Under the pieces are notes generated by a model. It did not search any database. It was not told the origin of the DNA and was given only the letters and a program-made list of their open reading frames with translations. DNA of 64,000 nt from Escherichia phage vB_EcoM-P3322, in sequence record PV191315.1; one strand, 5' to 3'. Made by a program: the position numbers and the translations under genes. Positions 4,432 to 53,160 of the stretch are shown in pieces (the stretch's first letter is position 1; each line of letters starts with the position of its first letter).

Positions 4432-4460
4432 TTGACTTTTTTCAAAAAATATGCTACCCT
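4432..4460 (+). promoter_or_regulatory. possible promoter (TTGACT -35 with weak -10); shares 15-nt motif AAAATAAGTGTTGAC with 17354-17368
   Basis: Good -35 but only weak -10 candidates; lies at the start of a 175-nt structured intergenic region. Confidence 0.25.
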
Positions 4461-4604
4461 AACCCCGAAGGGTCGAGCGATAGCGAGTATAGATTATGTA
4501 ATAGATTAATCTCTATCGTTAGATGTTCGAAGAACAGAGATTTAAGTACTTGTTCTTATCGGTAGATGATCGTAAGATCAAGAACAATAATAGGAGAGTG
4601 TGTT

Positions 4605-4802
4605 ATGTTAGTCAGTGAAATACTACCTGACTCTAATGGTAATCAGATCACTGTTGATTGGTTTCCTGGTACTGGTACACTAGATCTAACTGCTGAATGG
4701 TCTGGTGATATTTATGGAGAAGGTGTATTATCATTGTCTACAGAACAAATGATCATCCTTCGTGACTTCTTAATTAGTTTAGATCTAGGAGAAAACAAAT
4801 GA
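4605..4802 (+). CDS. hypothetical protein
   Basis: Track ORF 4566..4802; start moved to ATG 4605 after TAGGAGAG. Confidence 0.45.
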   Translation: MLVSEILPDSNGNQITVDWFPGTGTLDLTAEWSGDIYGEGVLSLSTEQMIILRDFLISLDLGENK

Positions 4803-13864: not shown

Positions 13865-14331
13865 ATTTTGCAGGATACGAACCTGTAGATCTTATTAATG
13901 GTGAGGGAGTTAGGTGCTCCCTCTGGGTTAGTGGTTGTAGCCACGGTTGTCGTGGCTGTTTTAACCAAAAAGCCTGGTCTTATTCTTATGGGAAACCGTT
14001 TACTCACGAAAATGTAGAGCAAGTTTTAAAAGATTTGTCAAGACCGTTTGTAAAAGGTTTAACAATTTTAGGAGGAGAGCCATTAGATCCACAGAATATT
14101 TACAATGTTAAAAACCTTATAGAAAAGGTTAGAGACGTTTATGGGTCAAGCAAAGATATAATGGTGTATACAGGGTATACTTTTGAGGAAGTGCCTTTGT
14201 ATATTAAAAATCTTGTTGACATTATTGTAGACGGAAAGTATGAAATAAACAATCCAACTGCAAAACCTTTCAGAGGGTCAGATAATCAAAGATTATGGAC
14301 CAAAACGGCAAGTGGTTGGCAATCAGATTAA
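13861..14331 (+). CDS. nrdG: anaerobic ribonucleotide reductase activating protein (radical SAM)
   Basis: 156 aa; CSHGCRGCFN cluster near N-terminus; TTG start overlapping nrdD stop. Confidence 0.7.
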   Translation: MNFAGYEPVDLINGEGVRCSLWVSGCSHGCRGCFNQKAWSYSYGKPFTHENVEQVLKDLSRPFVKGLTILGGEPLDPQNIYNVKNLIEKVRDVYGSSKDIMVYTGYTFEEVPLYIKNLVDIIVDGKYEINNPTAKPFRGSDNQRLWTKTASGWQSD

Positions 14332-15815: not shown

Positions 15816-16635
15816 TCAAACTCAAATTTTTGCAAATAAATTTGATGACCTGGAAACTGCTACTTTTGATATCCAAGATTATTCAAAATTGAAATTTGGT
15901 AGTAACCAAGCTGCGCGTCGTATGGGTAAAGAATTGGCACTTCAGTTTTTTGCTCAAGTGGCAATGAAACATATTGGGGAACAATTTGTTATCATTCCTT
16001 CTCCTTATAACCATGTGCATAATGCTGCAACAATGATGACAGATCATTTTATTAATTACTTTAATATGTTGCAATCACAATATGATCAAGGTCGTTCAGC
16101 AGAACTGGACATTATTCATCGTAAAGTTAGCTATATCAACGATTATGGTTTCTTGGATAAAGCTAGTCGTAAGAAACTTATTGATGGGGATACATTCTAC
16201 TGCAACAAAGAATTCTGGGGTGATAAGAAGCTTGTATTCATTGATGATGTAAATATCACTGGAACGCATGAAGACAAACTGATTGAGATCCTTGATGAAA
16301 ATCAAGTTAAAAATGATGTTTACTTCCTGTATTTTGCAAAATACGAAGGTAATCAAGCAGATACCGAAGCTAAACTGAATTTTAACTACATTAATACACC
16401 AGAAGCGTTTGTTAAAATGATTAATGAAGAACGTGATGCACAGTGTCTTGTTCGTCCTATTAAGTATCTTATGGGCCAAAATCATGAAGACTTCAAAATC
16501 ATTCTTAGCCAATTGCCACATTACTATGTAGAGCAACTTTTCTTTGGATGCTTGGGAGAAGGTTACAACCGAATTTCAAAGTATGCTGAAAACTTTGAAT
16601 TCTTGGATCGTTACACAAAACAACACATTCTGTAA
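15808..16635 (+). CDS. phosphoribosyltransferase-like protein
   Basis: PRPP-binding-loop-like KLVFIDDVNITGTHED; overlaps HAD gene by 8 nt. Confidence 0.45.
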   Translation: MRNQTQIFANKFDDLETATFDIQDYSKLKFGSNQAARRMGKELALQFFAQVAMKHIGEQFVIIPSPYNHVHNAATMMTDHFINYFNMLQSQYDQGRSAELDIIHRKVSYINDYGFLDKASRKKLIDGDTFYCNKEFWGDKKLVFIDDVNITGTHEDKLIEILDENQVKNDVYFLYFAKYEGNQADTEAKLNFNYINTPEAFVKMINEERDAQCLVRPIKYLMGQNHEDFKIILSQLPHYYVEQLFFGCLGEGYNRISKYAENFEFLDRYTKQHIL

Positions 16636-16648
16636 TAAGGAGCTAAAA

Positions 16649-17122
16649 ATGCTTAAAATTAAAACAGGTAATCTTATTGATGCCGCTAAAGCAGGTGAAG
16701 TAACTGTTATTGCTCATTGTTGCAACTGTATGTGTAATATGGGGGCAGGTATTGCCCCACAAATCAAACGAGCATTTCCTTACGCATATGCAGCAGACTT
16801 AGACACAATGGCTGGTGATCAAAGTAAACTAGGTTGTTTTAGTTTAGGGGTGCCAGACGAACAATCCGACCCTTTGGTATATAATCTATACGGGCAATAC
16901 CGTTACGGATACAATGCTAAAGGTCGTCAGTTGGACTATGATGCACTTTACGATGCACTAATAGCTATGGCTAACGATTTGCTTCTCCGTGACCAAAAAT
17001 GTAAGATCGGCTTACCTATGATTGGCGCTGGATATGCTGGAGGTAATTGGGCTATCATCCAAGTGATGATTGAAGAAACTTTAGTAAAAACAGGTCACGA
17101 TGTGACTATTTATAAACTTTAA
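16649..17122 (+). CDS. macro-domain protein (ADP-ribose binding/processing)
   Basis: Track ORF 16544..17122, start moved to ATG 16649 after AAGGAG; VIAHCCNCMCNMGAGIAPQIKRAFP aligns with the macro-domain Gly-rich loop, second loop LPMIGAGYAGG. Confidence 0.5.
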   Translation: MLKIKTGNLIDAAKAGEVTVIAHCCNCMCNMGAGIAPQIKRAFPYAYAADLDTMAGDQSKLGCFSLGVPDEQSDPLVYNLYGQYRYGYNAKGRQLDYDALYDALIAMANDLLLRDQKCKIGLPMIGAGYAGGNWAIIQVMIEETLVKTGHDVTIYKL

Positions 17123-17134
17123 GAGGAGATTAGT

Positions 17135-17356
17135 ATGGGTGTTTTTGCAGGTATTGTTGCAGTGGTAAGCTTTTTTGTTATTGCTTTTATGCTTAGTTTG
17201 ATTCCAGCTTGGTTACTGTTGCTGGCTTACAACTATGTTGCTGAAGTTATGGGTCATGCAGATATCACTGTCCCAGTAACCTTCTGGACCGTGGTTTGTG
17301 TTTCGTTTATTCTGGCTGTATTACGAGGAATCTTTTCCTCTCATTCAACAAAATAA
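17135..17356 (+). CDS. small membrane protein (2 TM)
   Basis: Track ORF 73 aa; hydrophobic helices; SD AGGAGA. Confidence 0.5.
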   Translation: MGVFAGIVAVVSFFVIAFMLSLIPAWLLLLAYNYVAEVMGHADITVPVTFWTVVCVSFILAVLRGIFSSHSTK

Positions 17357-17359
17357 GTG

Positions 17360-17387
17360 TTGACATAGTTCTTAAAAAGAGTAAGAT
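17360..17387 (+). promoter_or_regulatory. candidate sigma70-type promoter (TTGACA-N16-TAAGAT) preceded by motif AAAATAAGTG
   Basis: Consensus hexamers in the 80-nt gap before the TerC-like gene. Confidence 0.4.
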
Positions 17388-17399
17388 GTATCACATGAA

Positions 17400-17418
17400 G
17401 CGGGGAATAGTTCCCCGC
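17400..17418 (+). promoter_or_regulatory. 5' leader stem-loop GCGGGGAA-TAG-TTCCCCGC
   Basis: Perfect 8-bp GC-rich stem between promoter and RBS, no T-run after it. Confidence 0.3.
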
Positions 17419-17435
17419 AAAGAGAGGAGAAAAGA

Positions 17436-18410
17436 ATGCAACTTGGTTTCCCAATTATTGATGTAGTTGTTTTAGTTGGTATTTTAGCATTGTCTATTGG
17501 TATTGATTTCTTTGGTCACAAAGAAAATAAAGAAATTTCATTCAAATCCGCAGTTGGTTGGTCGATCTTTTGGATTGGTGTATCATTAGCTTATTATGGT
17601 TTTGTATACTTCCAACATGGTGCCGATTTTGCTAACTTGTTTTTAAGTGGATATGTGTTGGAAAAATCTTTGTCGGTAGATAACTTGGTAGTATTTGTAG
17701 CAGTATTCGCAAGTTTTGGTATTAAAAGCACACACTTGCAGCACAAGATTCTACTTTGGGGTATTGCAGGTGCGATTGTCTTCCGAGGTGTGTTTGTAGC
17801 AGTAGGCACTTACTTGTTAAGTTTGGGCTGGTATGTTAATATCTTCTTCGGTGCGGTCATCCTTTTCTGTGCAGCTAAAATGGTATTTGCTGGAGATAAT
17901 GACGCAGAAGTTGATTACTCTAAACACTGGGCTACCCGTATTGTTCGTAAACTGTTCCCTGTATCTAATAAAATGGATGGGGAGAAGTTCTTCACAATCG
18001 AAAATGGTGTTCGTGTAGCAACTCCAGCTTTGGTTTGCGTATTCGTGATGGAAATGGTGGATGTAATCTTTGCAGTAGATTCGGTTCCAGCGGTGATCGC
18101 AGTGACACAAGAACCCCTGCTTGTATTCTCTTCGATGTTATGTGCAATCTTAGGTCTACGTGCTCTGTTCTTTGTTCTTAGTGTCGCACTGAAGTATCTG
18201 GTTCACTTGGAGAAAGCAGTTATTGTGGTTCTGGTGTTTGTAGGCGTTAAACTGATGTATCACCCGTTTGCAGAAACATTGCATGAGAAAATGAGTTTCC
18301 TGCCAGCACATATTGATCCAACTATTAGTATGTATATCGTGCTTGGTACTTTGGCCCTTGGTGTTATTGCAAGCTTTATCTTCCCTGAAAAAGAAGAAGC
18401 TACTGTTTAA
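17436..18410 (+). CDS. TerC-family integral membrane protein
   Basis: 324 aa polytopic membrane protein; SLSVDNLVVFVAVF motif and paired acidic/His TM segments fit TerC/Alx pattern. Confidence 0.55.
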   Translation: MQLGFPIIDVVVLVGILALSIGIDFFGHKENKEISFKSAVGWSIFWIGVSLAYYGFVYFQHGADFANLFLSGYVLEKSLSVDNLVVFVAVFASFGIKSTHLQHKILLWGIAGAIVFRGVFVAVGTYLLSLGWYVNIFFGAVILFCAAKMVFAGDNDAEVDYSKHWATRIVRKLFPVSNKMDGEKFFTIENGVRVATPALVCVFVMEMVDVIFAVDSVPAVIAVTQEPLLVFSSMLCAILGLRALFFVLSVALKYLVHLEKAVIVVLVFVGVKLMYHPFAETLHEKMSFLPAHIDPTISMYIVLGTLALGVIASFIFPEKEEATV

Positions 18411-18416
18411 TAAATG

Positions 18417-18440
18417 AGCCTCCTTCGGGAGGCTATTTTA
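18417..18440 (+). terminator. rho-independent terminator
   Basis: AGCCTCC-TTCG-GGAGGCT hairpin followed by ATTTTA. Confidence 0.55.
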
Positions 18441-21735: not shown

Positions 21736-21929
21736 GAATCCGTATCTATATAATTGATGAAGACATTGGTGTCCGTTATGATGACGAAAAACGATTCGCA
21801 CCGATGGGAGGTATATATCCCCCAAGTGTTCTAGCAGTTTGTCGTGATTGTTATATTTATGAAGGTTGTCGTAACTTCCGTAAATTCGAACTCCTTGCAG
21901 ATATTGACTTCAATGAGGAGGAGGAGTAA
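21732..21929 (+). CDS. hypothetical protein
   Basis: Track ORF 65 aa; ATGA overlap. Confidence 0.45.
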   Translation: MRIRIYIIDEDIGVRYDDEKRFAPMGGIYPPSVLAVCRDCYIYEGCRNFRKFELLADIDFNEEEE

Positions 21930-32113: not shown

Positions 32114-32908
32114 TTGAGCAAGTTGAATACACTTGATCAATATTACACTAACCCCGCTTATGCGGGGTTCTTATGTGATAAGATCAAAGAAATTTTTGGA
32201 GAGGAAGCTAACTACGTAGAACCATCTGCGGGAGAAGGAGCTTTCTCTTCTTGTTTTAAAAACATAACTTCTTTTGATATTGACCCTAAGTTTGAAGATT
32301 GTATTGAGGCAGATTTTTTAGCTCAATCTGTTGAGTCTGTTGGCAGTGTAACTGCTTTTGTCGGTAATCCTCCGTTTGGAAAAAATGCTAGTCTTGCCAT
32401 TAAGTTCTTTAACCATTGTGCTGAAATGTTGGATAACGAAGGTGGTATTTGTTTTATCTTGCCTCGCACATTTCAAAAAATCTTTTTTGCACACAAACTA
32501 AATCCCCACATGCATCTTCTTTACGAAGAAGAATGTCCAAAAGGATCTTTTATTCTTCATGGGGAACCTTGGGATGTTCCTTGTGTATTCCAGATATGGA
32601 TTAAACGCAACGAGAAGCGTTCTCCCGTTGTTTTAGGAGAGAATAGACTGTTCGTATTAGGTAACAGTAAAGACTACGATATAGCCGTTAGGAGAGCGGG
32701 AGCAAGTGCAGGTAAAGTGTTATCAGAAGAAGATTCTTTATCTGAAGCATCTACCTACTTTTTAAAAGCCTTGACTTCTGATCTTAAAACACGTATCATT
32801 GAGGCTTACCCGTTACTTAAAGCTGAAGCTAGTAAAACTGCGGGAGTAAGAAGTTTAAGTTTAAAAGAACTTCAGTGGGTTCTGGAGAACATTAGAAAGG
32901 AGGAATAG
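32114..32908 (+). CDS. DNA N6-adenine methyltransferase-like protein
   Basis: 264 aa; catalytic-type FVGNPPFGKN; N-terminal YYTNP..AGFLCD consistent with AdoMet-binding region; TTG start after AAGGAGG. Confidence 0.5.
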   Translation: MSKLNTLDQYYTNPAYAGFLCDKIKEIFGEEANYVEPSAGEGAFSSCFKNITSFDIDPKFEDCIEADFLAQSVESVGSVTAFVGNPPFGKNASLAIKFFNHCAEMLDNEGGICFILPRTFQKIFFAHKLNPHMHLLYEEECPKGSFILHGEPWDVPCVFQIWIKRNEKRSPVVLGENRLFVLGNSKDYDIAVRRAGASAGKVLSEEDSLSEASTYFLKALTSDLKTRIIEAYPLLKAEASKTAGVRSLSLKELQWVLENIRKEE

Positions 32909-50644: not shown

Positions 50645-50670
50645 GTAAGCCCCTCCAAAGAGGGGCTTAC
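50645..50670 (-). promoter_or_regulatory. 5' leader stem-loop (11-bp stem) just upstream of RBS of 50314..50622
   Basis: GTAAGCCCCTC-CAAA-GAGGGGCTTAC inverted repeat; no U-tract; same position relative to RBS as the TerC leader hairpin. Confidence 0.3.
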
Positions 50671-50849
50671 AGTGGTAGTGACAACACTTTGAGTTAGTAC
50701 GATAGTAACTAAAGACAAGATTAACCCTGCTACGATATGTTTTCATCATTTTATCACATGGCGATGATATGCGCTTGCAGGACATAGCTTGTGTGGATTG
50801 TGCTGAATGCAATTTTGGCCTATTGTCATCAGTAAGAAAGCATTCATTC

Positions 50850-50873
50850 CCCCGCCGAAGCGGGGTTTTTGTT
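50850..50873 (-). terminator. hairpin terminator after 50872..53160 (A-tract/hairpin/T-tract, possibly bidirectional)
   Basis: CCCCGC-CGAA-GCGGGG stem; T5 on plus side, A-run on the other; related stem at 62283-62298. Confidence 0.4.
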
Positions 50874-53160
50874 ATATAACTGAAGTAACAACACCATTGA
50901 TTGTTGCTTTTATCTGTGCAGTTGGATGAGGTCTAACATTAATGGTGCCTCTATTACTTGATGCCCCAATAAATACATCATACCCTGAAGTTGCGTTGAA
51001 ATCCGAGAACAGGCTAACCGGGCTTGCATTCTGAGTGGCAGGCACAGCAGATGAGGTTCCACAACGCTTCAGGATACCTGGTGTTGCTAAGGATGATGCA
51101 GCATCGCGACGGCAAGTAACGTCAAGATCAAATGTGTATCCATCAAATCCGTATTGTGTTGAATCCTGATAAAGTTTCATTACTTCTACTGTTGAACCTC
51201 CGGCAGAAGAGTTATGGTTGAGTCCTGTGAACTTCATTCTGGTAAATCGATTGTCCTGCACAACTGTATCGAATGTCTTTTCAATTTTAAGACTGCTTAA
51301 ACCGTATACACCGTTCAGAAGTATAGGGTTCTGGACACGCGTACTCATGCTTATATCAATAGTCGGCGCGTTATACAGGTCAATCCTGTCACCAATGGAA
51401 CCTGAACGATCTTTGATATTTACGGCAATAGAAAATGTAGCATCATTATTATCAATTTTTATTGTCGATCTCTTATCTACCTCTATTGTCATAGATGGAG
51501 ATGACTCTGCTACTGAAGTTCCTGTTATTGTCAAAGAACGTGGATATTTAGTTACATATATTTTTGCTTCTTCGCTATAGTTTCCCGCCACAAAGGTTGC
51601 CTGGCTGTCTCCTATGCGTATTTCACCAGTTTCAACAGTTGCAGCAATGACAGACGTTCCAATAATCGGAACCTCTACTTTAGTTCCGGAAGGGAAATCA
51701 GATGTCATTGCTCGATCAAGAGTAATGACGTTTCCCGATATTGCTGTAATTCTTCGAGTCTCAACACCGCCAGTCGAGTTTGTAAAAGCAATCTCAAACC
51801 AGGTATCAAAACCAGAGGCATCTGCAACAGTAACAGTGTTGTCATTGATAGATGCTGGCGATGTCAGTGTGGTGCTCATACCCTCAATAGACAAAGTACA
51901 TTGGGCTTTGTCACTACTACCAATGTAACCCATCAACTTGATGGAGTTATTACGAACTCGAACACCGTACTTAGTTCTGGTGGAGCCGTTTTTTGTTCCC
52001 TGTGAGTGTCCATACCAATACATAACAAGATGTAAAAGATCGTAGTTGCTGATACGGTGATCAATTGATTTATTACGAACAGTAGCATAAGGCGCAGTAT
52101 AGATAGCTCTGGCTGCTGCGCTGGCACCATTATTAGAAATGTTTCCATTTACGGTGAAACCTTCAACTGTTTGGTGCCAGTGGAGACGATCTCTGCTCCT
52201 GTCACGCGGATCAATTCCGACATGGTGCAGTGAAATGTCAGATGACGTTGACATGATTATTGTTGCGTCATTTCCGGCACCGGAAAAAGTAAATCCTCGA
52301 CGATCAACATCAAGGTTGATTGTATTTGATAGATAGCTTCCGGAAGGGAATGATAACTTAGATATTATACTGTTAGCCCTTGCAACCCTGTTTGCTTCAT
52401 CTATAGCAACTGAGTTTTCATCTGCGTCTGCACCGCCAAAACCAAATTCATCATACCCCATGCTCTCTCTTACAATTAAGTTGGCATTAAACCCGCCCGC
52501 TATTGGGATTGAGTATGTATCATCATTTTGTGTTGTTGATATTAACCATTCTGACTCAGATCTTATTCCATGTTTGTTTTTATATGTTTTTACAATCATC
52601 CCTTCGCTGAATGTGGCACCATCCCCTGATGGCAGAATTCCAGATATTAACTCTGAAACGCTATTAAATATTATAGTTGTGTTTTTATTAACCCACAATC
52701 TCAAAGAAGCATCGCCAACACTAACCCACGCACTAGGACCAACGCCACCAGTTGATGTAGGGGTTGATTTAGGTGGTACATCTTTAGGGAAACCAGACCC
52801 CCATGTGTAGCACTGAGCACCCGCTATGTACCAGACAGCATCAGTTACACTGCCCACTGTAGCCCCTTCTTCAAAACTACCATCAACAAGAGTTAACCCA
52901 GCCTCGGCAAGACTACGACGCCACTGTTCACGATCATTAAGAAGATTGTTATTCAACTCTTCCTGAACAGTATTACCATTTGAAGATTGTATGAAATCTG
53001 CTCCATCTGTATCTTTCAACTGGGTGGCTAAAACCACCCCAGTGTCAGTAAGAAAGTTGGAAACTGTGCTTTTAACAGTCTTATCAGGTTGGTCTAAAAC
53101 CAGGTAATCAGAATCATTAACTTTTGATGTTTCGGGTAAATTAGTAATTGTAGTTGACAT
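50872..53160 (-). CDS. tail fibre/tailspike-like protein (762 aa)
   Basis: Large beta-rich Ser/Thr/Asn/Gly-rich protein in the tail module. Confidence 0.4.
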   Translation of the reverse strand: MSTTITNLPETSKVNDSDYLVLDQPDKTVKSTVSNFLTDTGVVLATQLKDTDGADFIQSSNGNTVQEELNNNLLNDREQWRRSLAEAGLTLVDGSFEEGATVGSVTDAVWYIAGAQCYTWGSGFPKDVPPKSTPTSTGGVGPSAWVSVGDASLRLWVNKNTTIIFNSVSELISGILPSGDGATFSEGMIVKTYKNKHGIRSESEWLISTTQNDDTYSIPIAGGFNANLIVRESMGYDEFGFGGADADENSVAIDEANRVARANSIISKLSFPSGSYLSNTINLDVDRRGFTFSGAGNDATIIMSTSSDISLHHVGIDPRDRSRDRLHWHQTVEGFTVNGNISNNGASAAARAIYTAPYATVRNKSIDHRISNYDLLHLVMYWYGHSQGTKNGSTRTKYGVRVRNNSIKLMGYIGSSDKAQCTLSIEGMSTTLTSPASINDNTVTVADASGFDTWFEIAFTNSTGGVETRRITAISGNVITLDRAMTSDFPSGTKVEVPIIGTSVIAATVETGEIRIGDSQATFVAGNYSEEAKIYVTKYPRSLTITGTSVAESSPSMTIEVDKRSTIKIDNNDATFSIAVNIKDRSGSIGDRIDLYNAPTIDISMSTRVQNPILLNGVYGLSSLKIEKTFDTVVQDNRFTRMKFTGLNHNSSAGGSTVEVMKLYQDSTQYGFDGYTFDLDVTCRRDAASSLATPGILKRCGTSSAVPATQNASPVSLFSDFNATSGYDVFIGASSNRGTINVRPHPTAQIKATINGVVTSVI

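Follow-up and report, generated by a model that had tools for sequence, protein, structure and literature searches.

A leader stem-loop ahead of the TerC-like gene of Escherichia phage vB_EcoM-P3322 as one copy of a repeated early promoter-and-leader cassette

Introduction

The stretch of Escherichia phage vB_EcoM-P3322 that was analysed in this study (sequence record PV191315.1; 64,000 nucleotides, called the window below) contains a GC-rich hairpin between a promoter and the Shine-Dalgarno (SD) sequence of a gene encoding a TerC/Alx-family membrane protein. The locus raises the question of what such a hairpin does in a leader and whether it belongs to the TerC gene at all. Public records do not agree on hairpins of this family, which are labelled "PHIRE promoter" in phage phAPEC8 and "rho-independent terminator" in phage ASO2A. 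In this study, we believed it to be well supported by sequence comparison that the TerC leader hairpin is one copy of a cassette that stands before approximately 15-20 early genes per genome and is not specific to TerC. As for its function, a stabilising 5' stem-loop is our best single guess.

The window belongs to the genus Phapecoctavirus (Stephanstirmvirinae, rV5-like myoviruses) and shares 99.2% identity with Escherichia phage tuntematon over 3 kb. Position 1 of the window corresponds to approximately position 21908 of the record, and all coordinates below are window positions unless a named record or locus is given. Plus-strand early and middle genes extend to approximately 38.2 kb of the window, and minus-strand tail genes lie beyond. 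Phapecoctavirus, Justusliebigvirus and rV5-like phages are widely isolated and are used as therapeutic coliphages. The literature searched for these genera contained no description of the cassette family and no transcriptomics or start-site data.

Results and Discussion

Layout of the TerC leader

The features of the locus, in order, are as follows.

17360-17365, plus strand: -35 hexamer TTGACA of a sigma70-type early promoter, 4 nt past the stop of the upstream open reading frame (ORF) 17135-17356
17382-17387, plus strand: -10 hexamer TAAGAT, found by a consensus scan, separated from the -35 hexamer by a 16-bp spacer
17388-17399, plus strand: discriminator and initial transcribed segment GTATCACATGAA, with the predicted start at A17393 or A17395
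17400-17418, plus strand: leader stem-loop GCGGGGAA-TAG-TTCCCCGC, 8 bp with a 3-nt loop, -14.6 kcal/mol
17419-17435, plus strand: A/G-rich linker AAAGA-GAGGAG-AAAAGA, predicted to be unpaired, with the SD sequence GAGGAG at 17424-17429
17436-18410, plus strand: gene for a TerC/Alx-family integral membrane protein of 324 amino acids (PF03741, E = 9.9e-39)
18417-18434, plus strand: 3' hairpin AGCCTCC-TTCG-GGAGGCT followed by ATTTTAT, a terminator-like end of the TerC unit that adjoins the SD sequence of the next gene

The stop codon of the upstream ORF occupies 17354-17356, and GTG precedes TTGACA (sequence read over 17357-17438); the hairpin is 44 nt past this stop codon, within the 79-nt intergenic gap ahead of TerC. 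The promoter was predicted from sequence by a promoter scan, in which TTGACA-16-TAAGAT matched the consensus at 10 of 12 positions. The transcription start was placed by the usual spacing of 7 +/- 1 nt after the -10 hexamer, and the predicted TerC transcript would carry about 3-6 unpaired 5' nucleotides ahead of the stem, or 4-6 as counted for A17393 and A17395. In relatives, the gene is annotated as TerC, Alx or membrane protein.

The initial annotation had reported a perfect 8-bp stem without a U-tract in a short 5' leader between the promoter and the ribosome-binding site. Sequence and fold confirmed this observation in every detail. The tail after the stem, AAAGAGAG, has 0 T in 8 nt, compared with 5-6 T past the stem in the canonical terminators of the window (11943, 18417, 38103, 40830 and 62282), and the leader hairpin was not listed by an intrinsic terminator scan of the window.

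When the predicted primary transcript (17393-17440) was folded, the hairpin was both the minimum free energy and the centroid structure (-14.6 kcal/mol, z = -4.13), none of 200 shuffles folded as stably, and the SD sequence and the AUG remained unpaired. The 91-nt stretch 17360-17450 gave a z of only -1.87 because it includes untranscribed promoter DNA. Five perfect hairpins with a stem of 8 bp or more and 6 or more GC pairs were counted in the 64-kb window, where dinucleotide shuffles predict 0.07. A switch between SD and anti-SD pairing, with a purine-rich 5' arm and a pyrimidine-rich 3' arm, was set aside: by eye, the 3' arm could pair with the SD sequence over 4-5 bp at most, the predicted folds leave the SD sequence largely open, and G-run/C-run stems are general among the hairpins of this phage. 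Processing of the RNase III type is unlikely with an 8-bp stem.

Orthologous TerC leaders

TerC loci were gathered from IMG/VR, GenBank phages and metagenomes, and 12 distinct orthologous leaders were aligned. Seven TerC loci came from scans of viral contigs. The metagenome scan with the TerC profile matched mostly bacterial homologues, at no more than 48% identity, and gave only two useful phage leaders (L017 and L018). Five stem haplotypes were found among the 12 leaders.

Window, tuntematon, nepoznato and L017: GCGGGGAA-TAG-TTCCCCGC
phAPEC8, phiWec186 and L003: GCGGGGAg-TGG-tTCCCCGC
phi92, L002 and L004: GCGGAGGA-TTG-TCCTCCGC
L005 and L018: AGGGAGAG-ATAGG-CTCTCCCT (arms also given as AGGGAGAG/CUCUCCCU)
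L006 and Klebsiella phage KP13-26: AGAGGGAG-ATAGG-CTCCCTCT (arms also given as AGAGGGAG/CUCCCUCU)

The seven core pairs were 100% paired, five of them having changed on both sides, and overall pairing reached 88.9% of cells, compared with 51-60% when the partners were slid. All orthologous leaders retained TTGACA or TTGACT while the spacer diverged, and the -10 pattern TAnnnT was likewise retained (TATAGT, TAGAAT, TAAAGT, TAACAT). The stem began 8-12 nt past the -10 hexamer, GGAG followed 7-9 nt past the stem in all of them, and the U and G of the loop were invariant. The data support the conclusion that the stem is maintained by selection as an RNA structure and that it keeps a short, fixed distance from a sigma70-type promoter.

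TerC loci without the promoter (FBKp34, L007 and L010) were also without the hairpin. At least three upstream contexts (the window, phi92 and the L005/KP13-26 group) retained the promoter, the hairpin and the SD sequence; because the upstream gene differs between them, the hairpin travels with the promoter and TerC and not with the preceding gene. Public annotation at the TerC leader reads "host dependent promoter (MEME)" in phAPEC8 and promoter in ASO2A, and the ASO2A record labels the hairpin itself as a rho-independent terminator (WebGeSTer).

The TerC genes of the unrelated phages A24, BUCT194, BUCT695 and Wc4 lie in tight operons without this promoter, which argues that the cassette is not a TerC-linked feature. 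Two of these loci contain hairpins of their own directly 5' of the TerC SD sequence with no recognisable promoter: TAGGGGA-GTAA-TCCCCTA without a T-tract in Vibrio phage BUCT194 (locus L098, approximately 365-390), and GGGGAG..CTCCCC followed by TTTTT in Pectobacterium phage Wc4 (locus L100, approximately 325-350).

A multi-copy cassette before early genes

The initial annotation had treated the hairpin as a feature of the TerC gene. This did not hold, as the same cassette is repeated approximately 15-20 times per genome before early ORFs. The cassette comprises, in order, the stop of the previous ORF, an AT-rich stretch (for example aataaaaagtaTTGACA in the cluster copies), TTGACA, 16-17 bp, TAnnnT, approximately 10 nt (often GTATCACATAG), the hairpin, a linker, the SD sequence and ATG. 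The hairpin has a GC stem of 6-9 bp, often with the loop AAT(A/G)GT, and is followed by an A/C/G-rich linker and a purine-rich SD sequence. The string GTATCACATAG is conserved in many paralogous cassettes, where TAAGAT with the GTATCACAT string is also repeated. At the genome ends of phAPEC8, many promoters predicted with MEME stand directly before a 20-mer labelled "promoter determined with PHIRE", and we read these 20-mers as the same element as the TerC leader hairpin. Four examples from phAPEC8 are given below, of which those with GGCGGGGAATAGTTCCCCACC and GCGGGAATAGTTCCCGC have the core GGGAATAGTTCCC in common with the TerC hairpin of the window.

TTGACA-16-TAAGAT-gtatcacata-GGGGCGACAAGCGCCCC-...agagag...ATG
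TTGACA-16-TAATAT-...gta-GGGCGGCAATGGTGCCGC-tcacaacagaagagag
TAAACT-gtattacatca-GGCGGGGAATAGTTCCCCACC
TAATAT-gttacataaa-GCGGGAATAGTTCCCGC

Just outside the window, the 6.3-17.4 kb region of tuntematon contains a run of small minus-strand ORFs separated by gaps of 73-97 nt. Nineteen small ORFs of tuntematon have a TTGAC..TAnnnT promoter, and in 18 of them a hairpin of -8 kcal/mol or lower lies between the promoter and the SD sequence. Cassette copies ahead of small early ORFs numbered 16-18 in tuntematon and 13 (14 with TerC) in phAPEC8. A covariance model built from the TerC orthologues only, with a cut-off of E <= 0.01, gave approximately 19 matches in positions 1-21.9 kb of tuntematon and approximately 13 more in the phAPEC8 ends that were fetched. 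Within the window, the model found the TerC copy alone (94.8 bits), the next match being a promoter without a hairpin (E = 0.02), and neither this model nor a search by loop and stem pattern gave further cassette copies there. A BLAST search with one cassette returned 590 places in 160 phage records, with 3-8 places in a typical Phapecoctavirus or Justusliebigvirus genome and fewer in the 137-kb phages W70, nimi and NHEP1.

In the family alignment, 89% of cells were paired and seven of the nine pairs showed double-sided changes, compared with 41-75% pairing in slid controls. The hairpins of the family have stabilities of -9 to -20 kcal/mol. Across 32 cassettes, the median distance from the -10 hexamer to the stem was 10 nt, and the 8 nt past the stem contained a mean of 1.0 T (maximum 4). 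Other promoters of the window (3005, 5091, 31611 and 36736) have no leader hairpin, and in the gaps at approximately 11938, 25042 and 31581 a hairpin with a T-tract comes first and the promoter follows. Since the other intergenic hairpins precede a promoter or carry T-tracts, the order of promoter and then hairpin defines a class, of which TerC is the sole member in the window.

Three minus-strand ORFs of tuntematon (locus L104; starts 8007, 8298 and 9658) have a GC hairpin and an SD sequence without a TTGAC promoter (GGGCGGTAACGCCC, GGGGCGGCAACGCCCC and GGCGGGATTAATCCCGCC). The hairpin module thus also occurs without the promoter module.

Proposed role of the leader stem-loop

We propose that host sigma70 RNA polymerase would read the cassette promoter and that transcription would begin at A17393 or A17395, approximately 7 nt past TAAGAT and about 3-6 nt ahead of the stem. 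With a start just ahead of the stem, the TerC mRNA would have the stem-loop as its 5'-terminal structure, an obstacle to RppH and to 5'-end-dependent RNase E entry. The life of the mRNA would thereby be prolonged, while the SD sequence would stay free. This role is favoured because RppH and RNase E of E. coli require single-stranded 5' ends, which explains stabilisation by 5' secondary structure (PMC3997798; its passage on this point cites Emory et al. 1992, Bouvet & Belasco 1992 and Bricker & Belasco 1999). Since there is no U-tract, transcripts from the cassette's own promoter should not be terminated. Read-through RNA from upstream genes would also carry the hairpin, which probably serves such transcripts as a 3' barrier or weak attenuator. 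This second role is likely because, in the tandem early array, the first stable structure to follow each ORF is the hairpin of the next cassette. Taken together, we gave about an even chance to the leader hairpin being an early-cassette stem-loop that protects the 5' end and probably doubles as a barrier to upstream read-through. This role seems likelier than that of a switch specific to one gene.

The distance of the stem past the -10 hexamer (8-12 nt in orthologues, median 10 nt in the family) predicts 0-6 unpaired 5' nucleotides. Several points weigh against this reading. The work of Emory and Belasco and that on RppH reportedly puts 3-6 unpaired nucleotides at the edge of protection. The ORFs with hairpin and SD sequence but no promoter are no less compatible with a barrier or processing role than with a 5' cap. 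Semi-conserved loop bases would not be required of a pure stability element and hint at a binding factor. The covariation of both the orthologues and the family rests on few independent lineages, and the family alignment was fitted to the covariance model and leans towards the structure for that reason. In the literature searched, no transcription start or RNA half-life data were found for these phages.

Part of this evidence would also suit an attenuator or 3'-end element of the promoter-early stem-loop (PeSL) type that acts only on upstream RNA, by terminating or attenuating read-through or by blocking 3' exonucleases and so stabilising the upstream message, with its presence in the TerC transcript being incidental. 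The PeSLs of T4-like phages are similarly composed (sigma70 early promoter, GGGG..CCCC stem-loop, SD sequence), one subclass has the stem-loop downstream of the -10 hexamer, and one PeSL stem-loop cut lacZ expression about as much as rrnB T1 (PMC2839356). For PeSL stem-loops, an effect on the upstream message as a barrier or attenuator has been proposed and in part demonstrated (PMC2839356). The terminator label in ASO2A, the similar hairpins before promoterless ORFs of the early cluster and the hairpins directly 5' of the TerC SD sequence in unrelated phages point the same way. However, a U-tract is absent from all 32 cassettes whereas the terminators of the same genome have one, and terminator hairpins elsewhere in the window stand upstream of the next promoter. 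The conserved order and the spacing of approximately 10 nt would be needless for an element acting on upstream RNA only, which would moreover terminate the cassette's own transcripts, and we considered such an element unlikely. It is doubtful, too, that the hairpin is a shared RNA operator by which an RNA-binding factor of the phage or the host would recognise all early transcripts. Such a factor might repress translation or cleave RNA for early shut-off, act in antitermination in the manner of nut/boxB, or spare phage mRNA while host mRNA decays. Such an operator would explain why approximately 20 transcripts per genome carry the element, why stems covary while loops are semi-conserved (U and G invariant in TerC orthologues, AAT(A/G)GT in many paralogues), and why promoters of non-early window genes lack the hairpin. 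A covarying stem with a semi-conserved loop is the pattern of protein-bound hairpins such as boxB and the MS2 operator. Several copies nevertheless have quite different loops (ACAAG, ATAGG, TAAC, ATTAAT), the likeness of the others may reflect recent duplication or gene conversion among copies, and no candidate binding protein, boxA-like element or GNRA-like pentaloop was identified. In its broadest form, a regulon-wide RNA tag, approximately 20 immediate-early transcripts including that of TerC would share a 5' stem-loop and be treated as a class by one factor. The factor could be a protein of the phage that acts at the early-to-middle switch, by shutting early mRNAs off or by stabilising them, or the tag could allow escape from a phage-induced attack on host mRNA 5' ends; we hold this form to be rather unlikely.

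An element acting at the DNA level appears improbable. The perfect palindrome just downstream of the start site could be an operator for a dimeric repressor at approximately +5 to +25, acting as a roadblock, or a recombination hotspot or cruciform for module shuffling; PeSLs have been proposed as recombination sites (PMC2839356), and the presence of all four combinations of leader and TerC allele implies recombination nearby. Against this, the half-sites differ within one genome and among orthologues while pairing is kept, the loop varies from 3 to 5 nt, and the breakpoints of the allele swap lie inside the TerC coding sequence (CDS) and not at the hairpin. In addition, G.U pairs were seen in the sense orientation only, in 2 cells of the TerC set and 13 of the family alignment; on the other strand they would be A.C mismatches. 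The sense-only G.U pairs and the differing stems within a genome favour an RNA structure over a duplex-DNA operator. The membership of the gene in the TerC/Alx family suggested one more candidate, a remnant or miniature of the yybP-ykoY Mn2+ or alx pH-responsive riboswitch. Bacterial TerC/Alx members are often under yybP-ykoY control. The leader here is only approximately 40 nt long, and the same cassette stands before approximately 20 unrelated ORFs, copies that effectively refute this candidate; we regarded it as having almost no chance of being right. At gathering thresholds, no Rfam family matched anywhere in the window, only chance-level matches came from a permissive scan (E <= 10) of 17100-17700, and a riboswitch scan of twenty metagenomic TerC loci found nothing, so that no contrast was available.

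TerC as a self-contained unit and its surroundings

The TerC copy of the cassette is an isolated outlier inside a nucleotide-metabolism and replication block. Phage phi92 and the window are homologous here only from the promoter to just past the 3' hairpin of TerC; the flanks are unrelated. This 3' hairpin is conserved and shows compensatory changes in phi92 (AAGCCCC-TTCG-GGGGCTT). Because the homology is confined to the span from the promoter to the 3' hairpin, TerC behaves, judging from the sequence comparison, as a self-contained, moron-like unit consisting of promoter, 5' hairpin, SD sequence, gene and 3' hairpin.

Within the gene, the interior (approximately 17530-18380, plus strand) shares 48-86% identity per 50-nt window with nepoznato, phAPEC8 and L017, compared with 96-100% for the flanks and the leader. 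Two TerC alleles, in classes of approximately 95% and approximately 73% amino acid identity, circulate in otherwise near-identical genomes. Two leader types (A and A') are combined with these alleles in all four ways among the relatives, which implies recombination nearby. The hairpin was rejected as the recombination joint of the divergent allele, since the breakpoints fall inside the CDS, approximately 100 nt past the ATG and approximately 30-70 nt ahead of the stop.

Some further observations were made on the plus strand of the window. The ORF 16544-17122, called "phosphatase" in relatives, has a weak Pfam match to the Macro domain (E = 1.2e-4), just above the curated cut-off. Two adjacent hairpins at 13903-13957 (GAGGGAG..CTCCCTC, -14.5 kcal/mol, and AGCCACG..CGTGGCT, -12.4 kcal/mol) lie just inside the 5' end of the nrdG (small subunit) frame, 40-95 nt past the end of nrdD. 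The hairpin AACCCCGC-TTAT-GCGGGGTT at 32150-32169 (-15.3 kcal/mol) falls within the N6-adenine methyltransferase gene as annotated, approximately 35 nt from its 5' end, which points either to a wrongly assigned start codon in relatives or to an internal structure. At 4432-4616, a TTGACT-17-TACCCT promoter is separated from the ORF at 4617 by a non-coding, repeat-rich leader of 169 nt (-35 kcal/mol, z = -2.0). This promoter and the core cgagcgatagcgagta are repeated at a second place in phAPEC8 (approximately 20467, minus strand), and the element could be a small RNA or a long structured leader.

A hairpin in the tail module

The initial annotation had also named a hairpin in the tail module as a similar arrangement.

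50645-50670, minus strand: hairpin GTAAGCCCCTC-TTTG-GAGGGGCTTAC, 11-bp stem with a 4-nt loop, -21.8 kcal/mol

An 11-bp hairpin does exist there ahead of a ribosome-binding site: it lies 22 nt ahead of the ATG (50622) of a minus-strand tail-module gene of 102 amino acids with the SD sequence AAGAGG. The likeness to the TerC leader, in contrast, did not stand. The gene is on the minus strand, no sigma70 promoter was found ahead of the hairpin, the covariance model did not match it, and the site is that of a terminator in tuntematon, so the hairpin was rejected as a second example of the TerC-type leader. The homologous gap of tuntematon is 73 nt long and contains CCCCTC-TTCG-GAGGGG followed by TTTTTT, a canonical terminator. 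The counterpart of this T-run in the window is CTTACTT, which pairs with an upstream GTAAG and lengthens the stem. The hairpin follows approximately 180 nt of non-coding sequence downstream of a tailspike ORF of 762 amino acids. The best reading is an intergenic hairpin that derives from a terminator and lies at the border of a swapped receptor-binding module.

On the same strand, a second hairpin (CCCCGC-TTCG-GCGGGG, 50850-50865) stands 6 nt past the stop of the tailspike ORF (53160..50872) and has no U-tract. Between the two hairpins, 50672-50850 comprises approximately 180 nt without a convincing ORF, where tuntematon has a different gene and a 73-nt gap. From its sequence, the region 50672-50865 looks like a swap of a receptor-binding-protein module bounded by hairpins. 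At 50748-50757 (minus strand), approximately 80 nt upstream of the 50645 hairpin, TGATAAAATG resembles the late-gene motif TggTAaAAtA of rV5 (PMC3606486) and could be a late promoter for the 102-amino-acid gene.

Significance

Recognition of a standard early leader corrects the conflicting promoter and terminator annotations of the same hairpins. The cassette predicts which genes are immediate-early, including that of a TerC/Alx-type membrane protein sited among later-looking genes, and it represents a compact, naturally optimised promoter-and-leader part.

Comparison with known systems

Lambda nut sites, which consist of boxA and a boxB hairpin, and the put RNAs of HK022 are one point of comparison. 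The likeness to nut and put lies in a small hairpin in the nascent RNA shortly after an early promoter, with a covarying stem and a partly conserved loop. The difference from nut is that no boxA-like string was seen, that there are approximately 20 copies rather than 2, and that the loops are UAG, GUGGU, UUG, AUAGG, AUGG and ACAAG; these loops contained no GNRA-like pentaloop, and no N-like protein was identified, no search for one having been made. With intrinsic terminators, the element shares a GC-rich hairpin in an intergenic gap, but the whole family lacks a U-tract and the hairpin stands downstream of its own promoter.

The 5' stabiliser stem-loops of ompA and papA, as they are cited in PMC3997798, likewise form a short stable hairpin near the (here predicted) 5' end, with an open SD sequence and no terminator tail. 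They differ in being gene-specific leaders, whereas the element described here is a repeated, sequence-related cassette whose 5' end is predicted and whose 3-6 unpaired nucleotides are borderline. A functional likeness is also found in T7 gene 10, whose transcripts carry a 5' stem-loop.

Among the described systems, the PeSL cassettes of T4-like phages come closest (Arbiol et al. 2010, PMC2839356; Comeau et al. 2014, PMC4122927). Both have the previous stop codon, an AT-rich stretch, a consensus sigma70 early promoter, a G-run/C-run stem-loop, and an SD sequence with a start codon, both occur in multiple copies that cluster among small ORFans, and in one PeSL subclass the stem-loop likewise comes after the -10 hexamer. 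The TerC element shows the predicted promoter, the G/C-run stem-loop, the stop and SD boundaries and the multi-copy occurrence in a plastic region of small ORFans. With regard to PeSL-like shuffling, the bounds of the homology between phi92 and the window fit the cassette, but the TerC swap of nepoznato and phAPEC8 breaks inside the CDS. In PeSLs, the positions of the stem-loops are variable, mostly within or overlapping the promoter, and termination has been shown (PMC2839356). Here, in contrast, the stem is fixed approximately 10 nt past the -10 hexamer, is predicted to be transcribed from its own promoter and has no U-tract. The lineage also differs, being that of the rV5-like Stephanstirmvirinae and not of T4-like myoviruses; because of this Phapecoctavirus lineage, the element is a PeSL analogue in another lineage and not a member by descent. 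PeSL-like cassette architecture thus extends beyond T4-like phages, and the hairpin adds a case, with a plausible mechanism, to the known kind of PeSL-like, 5' stem-loop leaders.

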